Of a stretch of DNA of 64,000 nucleotides, positions 48,624 to 59,760 are shown piece by piece (position 1 is the stretch's first letter; the number at the start of each line of letters is the position of its first letter). The notes below the pieces were generated by a model. It ran no database searches, was not told where the DNA came from, and saw only the letters and a program-made list of their open reading frames with translations. The translations under genes were made by a program, and so were the position numbers. Origin of the DNA: a virus; the UHGV virus genome UHGV-0066004; one strand, 5' to 3'.

Positions 48624-49121
48624 TCAAGCACAATTTGCTTTCATTACCTTATGGATTCTTTTTTCAGCATCTTCATAAGTTTCTTTAGTAATAAACTTAA
48701 TTGCTGCAATATTGGCATTGTAGAAGAGTCTGAGCTTCGAGTCAATCCTTTTTGTCATTACATCGAACTTATGTTGAAGGTTTGCTTCACCATAAACTAG
48801 ACCACCTTTTGTGTAGTAGGTTTGGATAATGTAAAAGTCAAAAAACTCTTTTCCAAAGCTTTCAATATCTTTTTTGATATACTCAGAAGAAGTCTCATAA
48901 GTCATCCAATCACTTTCCTTAGTGACTATCTTCTTCCGAGTCTTACCAGCAACTTTTCTTTTGGTCACACTGTTAAGCTGCTTCTTACCCAAATAGTACT
49001 GTCCAGTCTTTTTGCAGTACACTAGGTAGACAAAACCAAAGTGCTTTGCTGGGTCAACTTCACCACATAGTGAAACCCAATGTCCATATTCAGGGCAATT
49101 GCCAAAACCTTTAACCTTCAT
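48624..49121 (-). CDS. GIY-YIG homing endonuclease (Seg-like)
   Basis: FGFVYLVYCKKTGQYYLGKK matches GIY-(10)-YIG spacing. Confidence 0.55.
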   Translation of the reverse strand: MKVKGFGNCPEYGHWVSLCGEVDPAKHFGFVYLVYCKKTGQYYLGKKQLNSVTKRKVAGKTRKKIVTKESDWMTYETSSEYIKKDIESFGKEFFDFYIIQTYYTKGGLVYGEANLQHKFDVMTKRIDSKLRLFYNANIAAIKFITKETYEDAEKRIHKVMKANCA

Positions 49122-49618
49122 TCATAAGCTTCTCCGTGATTTGAAAACTCTTTATGTAGTTCTTCTCTTTTCTTTTTGACAACTGATTCAGCCTCAGTGA
49201 TAGAGTCAAATAAACCTAGATGGTAGCATACTTTATTATGCTTGACTTGTGCAGCCCATCTACCTCTTTGCTTGTGGTAATATACACCCTTCACACCAGA
49301 CTTATTATCTTTTCTTTTGACTGCATTGCAGTTGTTGTCTGACCTGCTACACTCTCTCAAATTGTCGAACCAGTTGTCGTGCCTGATACCATTCTTGTGG
49401 TCAACAAATTTTGGGAGGTAGCCTTTCATATACAAGAATGCCAGTCTGTGTGCTGCATATCTTTTTCCGAAGAGTTTTATATAGATATAACCACTATGGT
49501 GTTTAAGACCTGCTACTGAGCCAGCTTTGGCCTTACCTCTTCTACCAACTAACCAAGTAAAGACCCCTGTTTCGGGGTCATAGTGCAGGTATTCTTTAAG
49601 AGTTTGTTGAGTTAACAT
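49118..49618 (-). CDS. HNH/AP2-type homing endonuclease
   Basis: Paralog of 59233..59760 (shared [18 protein letters not shown], C-terminal AP2-like KGV...GRW motif). Confidence 0.7.
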   Translation of the reverse strand: [166 protein letters not shown]

Positions 49619-50642
49619 TTGGTGTCCACCCATACTTATCAAAAGTGAAATCGTCTTTCTTGTTTCTTTCCTGATAAGCTAAGAAAAAGTGTTGCTGCAT
49701 TAACTCTAAAGGTGTTCTGGTAATTGTTTGACCATCCCATGATACATAAGTGTATGACTCTTTCTTAGCATAAAGTTCATAGATAGCATCAAGGCACTCT
49801 TTATAAGTATTTTTACCTTCAAGGGCTTTCATTACAGTAGCCTTACCAACACCCTTTAAACCAAAATAATTATCAGCATTGTCACCAGCCACAGCTTGAT
49901 AACAAAGGAATTTAAAACCTACACCAACTGTCTTCTTAGCTTTTGGTGTTGATTTTATTGGGCAATCCCAAATTTCACCTACGTTGTTGTCAGCAATGAA
50001 AATCAAAGGCGACTTTTCATAGGTCATATCAATGCAGTAAGTCCCTTCAGCTTGGCGAAGGTCTTTATCAATACTCATCAAGGCAGCCTTTTTACCCATC
50101 TTTTCAGCTTTAGCAATAACGATAGAATCGGCTTCAAATCCATCAAGAATTAGTTTGAACTCTGGTCTTGACAGAAGATACTCACGACAAGCAACTAAGT
50201 GTGTTGGTGTGACAGCATCTTTACGGTTCCCTTGATATTGGTGCTCAAGACCTTTAATGTCTTTATGTTTATGCACACCTTTCTCTGTTAAATAACCTAC
50301 CCAAGTTCTCTCTTTACCAACAATCTTAAGCCATTCCTGAAGCACCTGTTGAGTAGCCATGATAGCTTCTTTTTCACTCTTAGCTTCTTTCCAAGTCTGT
50401 CTTTCCCATTCATCTTCATCAAATGTCAGGCCAAGCTCTTCCACAAGGATTCTCTGGTCTGCTAACCATCTTGCAGCATCTTTCGCATTATCAAATAGCT
50501 CAGATTCTTCTGCTGTGAGTTTATTGATGTATTTATATTTTGCTTTCTCAACTACACAAGCACCTTTATAGGCAATACTGTCAGAGTCAATAAAAACATG
50601 TGTAACTGAATCGGGAAGTTTTGTTAATGTGTACTTCTCCAT
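49596..50642 (-). CDS. 5'-3' exonuclease / flap endonuclease (RNase H-like)
   Basis: Acidic clusters FIDSDSIAY and MSIDKDLRQ typical of FEN/PIN-fold metal sites. Confidence 0.55.
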   Translation of the reverse strand: MEKYTLTKLPDSVTHVFIDSDSIAYKGACVVEKAKYKYINKLTAEESELFDNAKDAARWLADQRILVEELGLTFDEDEWERQTWKEAKSEKEAIMATQQVLQEWLKIVGKERTWVGYLTEKGVHKHKDIKGLEHQYQGNRKDAVTPTHLVACREYLLSRPEFKLILDGFEADSIVIAKAEKMGKKAALMSIDKDLRQAEGTYCIDMTYEKSPLIFIADNNVGEIWDCPIKSTPKAKKTVGVGFKFLCYQAVAGDNADNYFGLKGVGKATVMKALEGKNTYKECLDAIYELYAKKESYTYVSWDGQTITRTPLELMQQHFFLAYQERNKKDDFTFDKYGWTPNVNSTNS

Positions 50643-59222: not shown

Positions 59223-59232
59223 TGGTGACAAA

Positions 59233-59760
59233 ATGATTACACAAGAACGTTTAAAGGAACTACTACACTATGACCCCGAAACAGGGGTCTTTACTTGGCT
59301 TCGTAGAGAGGGTGACTCAAGGGCTGTTAAAGTCTTTAATAGTAAGTACGCAGGACAGGTAGCGGGGAGCATCCAGATTGACTCAACTGGTCATAAGCAG
59401 ATTACTATCTATTTTGACAAGAAAGCACATAAAGCACACAGACTTGCATGGCTGTACGTGTATGGTAGGCTACCGAAAGGTGTTATTGACCATATTAATG
59501 GGGACTCCCTTGATAACAGGGTTGTAAACTTAAGAGAAGCAGATGACTGCCAAAGTGCTTGGAATAAAAGCAAGTTATCTACCAATAAATCAGGCTATAA
59601 GGGTGTAAGCCTGAAGAAGAAGTCTGGTAGGTGGGTTGCGCAAATAAGCTATAAAGGTAAAAAGATATCATTAGGTTACTATGACACACCAGAAGAAGCC
59701 CATAAAGCTTACTGTGAAGCTGCTATTAAACTCCACGGAGAGTTTGCAAAACTAAGTTGA
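59233..59760 (+). CDS. HNH/AP2-type homing endonuclease
   Basis: Paralog of 49118..49618; 33-bp identical nucleotide stretch in inverted orientation. Confidence 0.7.
   Translation: [175 protein letters not shown]

Follow-up and report, generated by a model that had tools for sequence, protein, structure and literature searches.

We analyzed a 64,000-nucleotide (nt) stretch of the virus genome UHGV-0066004, hereafter the window, whose database matches identify it as a Felixounavirus, i.e., a FelixO1-like phage, and in which two HNH/AP2 endonuclease genes share a short identical sequence in inverted orientation. The 12.5 kilobases (kb) around these genes have matches in 279 phage records, 218 of which are collinear over at least 80% of the length; the top match, Escherichia phage dune (Ounavirinae, Felixounavirus), is 96% identical and has the same gene order. 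The region contains a replication and nucleotide-metabolism module with nrdD, nrdB, nrdA, a 5′-3′ exonuclease gene (exo), a primase/helicase gene, a deoxynucleoside monophosphate kinase gene and a family-A DNA polymerase gene (pol). A first-pass annotation had placed four nuclease genes here, and Pfam and PHROG domain searches bear out their positions and kinds. The GIY-YIG nuclease gene (48624..49121, minus strand, 165 amino acids) matches Pfam PF19835 (SegE-type, E=1e-26) and PHROG 447/7363. The first HNH/AP2 gene, HNH1 (49118..49633, minus strand, allele class A), has HNH_3 (1e-12) and AP2 domains and matches PHROG 99 (2e-75), and the second, HNH2 (59233..59760, plus strand, allele class D), has HNH_3 (1e-14) and AP2 (2e-14) domains. 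The fourth, a MobE-like gene with HNH and NUMOD3 domains (40120..40686, minus strand), matches Pfam NUMOD3 (6.8e-5) and PHROG 655, "homing endonuclease" (9e-57). The AP2 domain of HNH2 scores 54.3 bits in Pfam (cut-off 33.3) and has phmmer matches to plant AP2/ERF structures; that of HNH1 scores 31.5 bits, slightly below the cut-off, yet it aligns with HNH2. Both proteins show the catalytic D-H...N-G...D-N...N-L-R motifs. The HNH-AP2 family was found in 1663 phage records, and a tblastn search of the window returned no paralogs of the pair beyond HNH1 and HNH2 themselves, which are 99–100% identical to deposited genes (HNH1 to LF82P5, HNH2 to dune). The endonuclease load is thus ordinary for the genus and already annotated in close relatives.

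Each of the three HNH genes adjoins a gene of the module. HNH1 is placed at the 3′ end of exo, and its likelier start is 49633, as annotated in phage dune, or 49618. The GIY-YIG gene and HNH1 had been described as lying back-to-back at 48624-49618; they do adjoin, but in tandem on the minus strand rather than divergently, the HNH1 stop overlapping the GIY-YIG start by 4 nt (ATGA). HNH2 follows pol directly, on the strand opposite to HNH1 as had been proposed, and starts 10 nt past the pol stop. It lies between that stop and a promoter-like site of the next gene, a sigma-70-like TTGACA-17-TACCAT (59757..59785, plus strand) that is directly behind HNH2 here and behind the pol stop in an HNH2-less genome. 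The MobE-like gene had been placed right after nrdD and indeed starts 7 nt past the nrdD stop. It sits between nrdD and the nrdD terminator, a strong intrinsic terminator with a 16-base-pair (bp) stem followed by TTTTATT (40076..40111, minus strand), which stands directly behind nrdD in genomes such as dune that do not have the MobE-like gene; a TACATA repeat is found at both ends of the insert.

The HNH1 and HNH2 proteins are 42% identical, and the identity of their DNA in sliding windows is mostly 25–70% outside one block of 33 nt. As first reported, this 33-mer, CACTATGACCCCGAAACAGGGGTCTTTACTTGG, occurs exactly twice in the window, inverted and with 0 mismatches (0 expected in 100 shuffles). 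An exact search places copy 1, which covers 11 codons, at 49553..49585 (minus strand) and copy 2 at 59266..59298 (plus strand). Two independent encodings of its 11-residue peptide would be identical with a probability of ~3e-4 under the codon usage of this phage, so that the 33-nt identity is beyond what protein conservation yields. These odds, together with the many codon sets seen in 93 other encodings, rule out chance or protein constraint as the source of the 33-mer; its 10-residue peptide is common in this endonuclease family across unrelated phages, in dozens of codon sets. The exact 33-mer is confined to contigs of Felixounavirus size. In the phage collection it was found in 121 records at 132 places, from which it follows that only ~11 genomes carry two copies, and FelixO1 carries an A-type gene with the identical 33-mer. 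There were 0 matches in 185,579 bacterial species genomes, which rules out a bacterial or prophage origin of the element.

Within the 33-mer lies an 18-nt palindrome, GACCCC GAAACA GGGGTC in copy 1 (49562..49579, minus strand), which is 17 nt past the exo stop and at +40 from the ATG at 49618. Copy 2 (59272..59289, plus strand) is 50 nt past the pol stop and likewise at +40 from the HNH2 ATG. The general form, GACCCC-N6-GGGGTC, encodes D-P-x-x-G-V and does so with CCC, GGG and GTC, the rarest proline, glycine and valine codons of this phage (5%, 7% and 10%); the probability of the core codons given the amino acids is 3e-5. The alternatives GAT, CCT and GTT, which are more used and would still be compatible with G.U pairing, never occur in the core. 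Searches at the protein level yielded seven allele classes for the two sites, with 33–58% protein identity between classes: A, B and C behind exo, and D (with variants D′ and D″), L130-type, L132-type and L135-type behind pol. GACCCC-N6-GGGGTC is present in all seven. When codons for the same amino acid are compared between classes, synonymous differences number 0/114 in the core, 24/58 in the five flanking codons and 649/1289 outside the block. Four changes across alleles fall in the loop (GATACA, GAAATA and GACAAA are found there), and the other changes are codons outside the 18-mer (CAT, CGC, AAC, TAC, ACG, TTA) or a 1-nt deletion in a pseudogene. The core is also unchanged in orthologues with a synonymous divergence (dS) of 1.0–1.5.

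The 33-bp identity had originally been taken to imply recent duplication or homing. With the paralogs at 42% identity and the 18-nt core invariant in seven allele classes, that interpretation does not hold: the 33-mer is not a duplication scar, and it holds an ancient 18-nt island which is under nucleotide-level constraint. The island is restricted to alleles at the post-exo and post-pol sites in Felixounavirus, Mooglevirus and Suspvirus. Outside this group, 93 distinct encodings of the peptide gave 3 full stems where 3.6 were expected, and 0 strict Watson-Crick stems. We rejected an RNA hairpin that covaries across the whole family on account of this chance rate, which also makes a covariation test impossible. 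A hairpin common to all Ounavirinae HNH-AP2 genes is ruled out as well, since dune_29 and gp90 of Erwinia phage phiEa21-4 are without it; in dune_29 the motif is YEPETGL, written GAA CCA GAG ACA GGT TTA, and forms no strong hairpin. The only Rfam matches in the window were tRNAs, and the surroundings of the two hairpins gave none at E≤1, which rules out a known RNA family. We also considered the GACCCC half-site as a recognition or immunity determinant and rejected it, as the 5′ end of the GIY-YIG gene has GACCCC or GACCCA irrespective of whether HNH1 is present; no GACCCC-type site was found near the empty post-pol site. A limited search of the literature found no report of the conserved palindrome, which appears to be undescribed.

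The genes that carry the island behave differently from their GIY-YIG neighbor. All four had been grouped as a homing-endonuclease load, a description which fits the three HNH genes, each a presence/absence polymorphism with linked diverged flanks, and does not fit the GIY-YIG gene, which is fixed. HNH1 is full length in 43 records only, while 228 records match the GIY-YIG gene; HNH2 is matched over at least 80% of its length in 55 records only, and the MobE-like gene is present in 49 only. Clean empty sites exist for all three. In VpaE1_ev78 and SP22 exo runs directly into the GIY-YIG gene, and the HNH1 insert substitutes for the last ~8 exo codons; in phage fjerdesal a TTGACA promoter-like site stands within a few bases of the pol stop; and in dune the strong terminator is directly behind the nrdD stop. 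The flanks are diverged over ~600 bp at the 3′ end of exo (49596..50200, minus strand; 77–85% identical to HNH1-less genomes), ~400 bp at the 3′ end of pol (58800..59222, plus strand; 86–92% identical to an HNH2-less genome) and the last ~100 bp of nrdD (40697..40800, minus strand; 75% identical to dune, which is without the MobE-like gene, and 94–100% further in). The identity of these flanks stays at 96–100% against genomes sharing the endonuclease and drops only against genomes without it. Among IMG/VR relatives, protein identity ranges from 71–97% in the C-terminal 300 amino acids of the polymerase and from 55–99% in the C-terminal 200 amino acids of the exonuclease. Such flank divergence is the signature of co-conversion and marker exclusion reported for T4 free-standing endonucleases (PMC2988022) and for ICP1 (PMC10448857). 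The ratio of nonsynonymous to synonymous substitution rates (dN/dS) in orthologue comparisons is 0.05–0.17 for HNH1 and 0.13–0.18 for HNH2, which indicates that the proteins are maintained by purifying selection. HNH1, HNH2 and the MobE-like HNH gene therefore appear to behave as typical free-standing mobile homing endonucleases. As read from the flank divergence, the HNH endonucleases would cut the 3′ end of the neighboring gene in phages that do not have them, and the endonuclease gene would be copied in with its flank during co-infection.

Two alleles show decay. In IMGVR_UViG_2974574300_000001 (L207) the A-type gene is frameshifted because the C4 run of the hairpin has one C fewer, and in IME338 (L221) a D′-type gene is frameshifted downstream of an intact hairpin. 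Phage dune carries a third gene of the HNH-AP2 family, dune_29 (MN850636 18299-18790, L225), between the genes for ribose-phosphate pyrophosphokinase and nicotinamide phosphoribosyltransferase; the window has no counterpart of it (~36361-36403).

The GIY-YIG gene is full length in 228 of the 228 matching records, at 80–99% nucleotide identity, which is the level of the backbone. Its protein is 62% identical to gp98 of Erwinia phage phiEa21-4, encoded at the same position next to exo, and the gene is syntenic in Mooglevirus, Suspvirus and Kolesnikvirus, with a dN/dS of ~0.05. From its presence in every matching record at backbone identity and its same place in phiEa21-4, it is a fixed resident of Ounavirinae and not a mobile element at present. 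Residues 21-138 of the 165 make up the Pfam domain, no DNA-binding or other domain was detected in the protein, and no relative was found in the PDB. The gene is often mis-annotated as "NAD synthetase". In genomes L001–L220, the 5′-terminal ~70 bp of the gene (within window 48950-49121) exist as two haplotypes that are mosaic relative to the upstream HNH allele, which indicates frequent recombination within this 1-kb stretch.

What the palindrome does is most likely to limit expression of the endonuclease, as a weak terminator, an attenuator or a 3′-stabilizing hairpin. The stem has 6 bp, five of them G-C pairs, with a predicted free energy of −11.4 kcal/mol and a predicted stem pair probability of 0.99–1.0 in the window copies and 0.9–1.0 in 9 of 10 allele contexts. 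Among terminator-like sites in 47-61 kb, the two palindrome copies rank highest. There is no room for a promoter of its own before HNH1 or HNH2, and judging by the spacing the HNH genes would be co-transcribed with the upstream essential genes. In the messenger RNA (mRNA) the palindrome would fold into a hairpin 17–51 nt past the upstream stop and ~40 nt into the endonuclease reading frame, where it may serve as a weak intrinsic terminator, attenuate transcription or stabilize the 3′ end of the upstream message. Expression of the endonuclease would thereby be kept low and the downstream genes would be served by their own promoter. We favor a weak terminator, an attenuator or a 3′-stabilizing hairpin because the fold, the position and the promoter behind HNH2 together reproduce the arrangement of T4 mobE and segF. 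Several observations weigh against it. The T-tract is poor: TCTTTACTT, found in five allele classes, passes the 5-of-8 rule of the terminator scan, TTAACATGG and TTCTACAAC, found in the other two, fail it, and known Felix O1 terminators (a Moogle example too) carry T5-6, unlike the palindrome. No compensatory stem changes were seen across the alleles, and an invariant stem neither proves nor disproves pairing. There are no G.U variants despite GAT, CCT and GTT being among the most-used codons, so that sequence-specific recognition fits as well as structure. Neither dune_29 nor phiEa21-4 gp90 has a strong hairpin, which means that not every family member requires one, and the homing target sites that belong to the same picture were placed solely by flank divergence.

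The main rival is that the palindrome is a DNA operator, in which two AP2 domains bind the inverted GACCCC and GGGGTC half-sites inside the 5′ end of the gene and, once bound, block RNA polymerase, leading to auto-repression or to cross-repression among alleles. We consider this unlikely, although much of the same evidence suits it. The half-sites are invariant around a 6-nt spacer that is fixed in length and variable in sequence, pairing is strictly Watson-Crick with no G.U variants despite the codon preference, the T-tract is not conserved, and every carrier encodes an AP2 domain. AP2 domains favor G/C-rich sites and AP2 proteins of phages can silence genes from within coding regions (PMC10448857; bioRxiv 10.64898/2026.02.23.707548), and the autorepression of I-TevI is a precedent (PMC2988022). 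On the other hand, the reading frame forces a fixed spacer length anyway, AP2 domains differ strongly from one allele class to the next and yet all must read one site, the inferred target sites in genomes without the gene show no matching half-site pattern, and dune_29 has an AP2 domain and no palindrome. A broader form of the idea, to which we give a similarly low probability, is a cis-regulatory module in the coding sequence that is read sequence-specifically, e.g., by AP2, so that alleles repress themselves and each other. If true, the palindrome would serve a selfish gene family as a common "self-restraint" signal, held across two loci and co-infecting phages against codon bias.

Recombination offers two further accounts of the same sequence. 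The island could be kept identical as a crossover point for the shuffling of N- and C-terminal cassettes, or by short-patch gene conversion, and mosaic flanks are indeed common here. At the post-exo site the island coincides with the 5′ boundary of an exchangeable cassette: alleles A, B and C share their 5′ end through the 33-mer and identity falls from 85–100% to <50% right past TGG, while A and C have their 3′ end in common too. The post-pol island, however, has diverged sequence on both sides and therefore does not mark where a shared flank ends. Next to the core, codons have diverged to the level of the background (24/58 against 649/1289), which makes homogenization by recombination unlikely, as a conversion tract would need to be exactly 18 nt every time. 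Tracts of 18–33 nt are at or below the length for efficient homologous exchange, 33 bp being near the lower limit, and no post-exo/post-pol chimera was found; we regard this account as improbable. Less credible still, and in our view very improbable, is the model of the first-pass annotation, in which a recent duplication or homing event left an inverted pair able to invert the ~9.7-kb replication module between its members. The geometry would allow it, with perfect 33-bp repeats in inverted orientation 9.7 kb apart, a promoter region at 56.2-56.5 kb within the segment, and an in-frame exchange that would yield two intact chimeric genes. The public genomes searched, however, contain no inverted or chimeric form. 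All listed two-copy genomes (dune, KEP1, ULIM9, bumzen, SPJ41) are collinear, among the 218 single-place collinear records, and a BLAST search with a 93-nt query modeled on the junction that recombination would create detected no chimera among 126 records; the apparent long matches to this query were ordinary A-type or D′-type genes. Both copies occur together in just ~11 of 121 genomes, identity between the paralogs is 42%, the island is ancient, and no invertase was noticed in the region. Inversion is thus largely refuted at the level of deposited genomes, and low-frequency inversion within a stock is unsupported. Taken together, we are moderately confident that the best overall explanation combines mobile HNH genes, a fixed GIY-YIG gene and a hairpin island that limits endonuclease expression.

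A number of other features were observed in and around the window. A cluster of 24 tRNA genes (3346-8489, minus strand; Rfam tRNA matches) is as expected for a FelixO1-like phage. An open reading frame (ORF) of 181 amino acids at 15861-16406 (plus strand) lies within a ~520-bp segment absent from dune, and no endonuclease signature was noticed in it. Positions 18634-18830 span the start and end point of the linear dune record, so the source record of the window is permuted relative to dune. At 37556-38071 (minus strand), a 171-amino-acid ORF of PHROG 3500 (unknown function) weakly resembles an HNH endonuclease family (E=9e-6), contains a discernible H-H...N...N stretch, and may be a further HNH protein that is degenerate or non-homing. 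The DNA polymerase gene of the window (56493-59222) is intact; in L127, L134, L221 (IME338), L224 (REP6) and many Salmonella Felixounavirus records it is annotated as two coding sequences with a ~230 bp gap, which suggests an extra insertion or split in the C-terminal region of pol in those records. Three records, MG065664 and MG065668 ("Campylobacter phage A132/A126") and GU169904 ("Staphylococcus phage SA1"), include stretches with 92–93% identity to the Felixounavirus region and are probably mislabelled or mixed.

It is important to consider how free-standing homing endonucleases behind essential replication genes are kept at a tolerable level of expression. The palindrome, concealed within a conserved peptide motif and spelled in the rarest codons, has stayed fixed in alleles whose other parts have diverged to saturation, and it provides a simple testable handle on this question, as synonymous stem-breaking mutants are easy to make. 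For genome scans it is a caution against taking every short perfect repeat shared by paralogs as a sign of recent duplication. The locally diverged 3′ ends of exo, pol and nrdD also matter for Felixounavirus phylogenies that are built on these genes.

The closest known arrangement is that of T4 mobE and segF, where termination at a weak intrinsic terminator in the 5′ coding region is ~30% and a separate promoter serves the downstream essential gene (PMC2988022). As in that system (Edgell, Gibb & Belfort 2010, PMC2988022), HNH1 and HNH2 are free-standing endonuclease genes that adjoin essential nucleotide-metabolism or replication genes, would be transcribed from the promoter of the upstream gene, have a weak terminator-like hairpin in the 5′ coding region and have flanking markers that appear co-converted, and directly behind HNH2 lies a promoter-like site of the next gene. 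They differ in being HNH_3+AP2 genes rather than members of the Mob and Seg families and in their poorer T-tract, and termination is here a prediction from sequence. The window stem, moreover, is part of the coding for a conserved peptide motif and does not vary among very divergent alleles of two loci, a property unreported for mobE and segF. The GIY-YIG protein shares its SegE-family catalytic domain with the T4 SegE-type endonucleases; unlike those enzymes, it has 165 amino acids and no detectable DNA-binding domain, is fixed and behaves as a core gene. The operator explanation would parallel I-TevI, which represses itself by binding an operator at its gene that resembles its homing site (PMC2988022), with the difference that the I-TevI operator overlaps the promoter upstream of the reading frame, while the window palindrome lies within the coding sequence. 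At the protein level, HNH1 and HNH2 show no difference from known HNH-AP2 endonucleases, which have an N-terminal HNH and a C-terminal AP2 domain (Magnani et al. 2004, cited in PMC10448857 and PMC3794426). Like the IPA-HNH genes of ICP1 and the F-Tfl nicking endonucleases of T5-like phages, they are free-standing, lie beside essential genes and mark exchange boundaries. Within the genus, six HNH endonuclease genes have been reported in Felix O1 (Whichard et al. 2010, PMC3185647) and variable endonuclease content among felixounaviruses (PMC8300805), i.e., the same kind of load as in the window. In the passages that a keyword search returned, both papers list genes and describe no allele replacement at fixed sites, linked flank divergence or palindrome, the features by which the post-exo and post-pol genes are characterized here.

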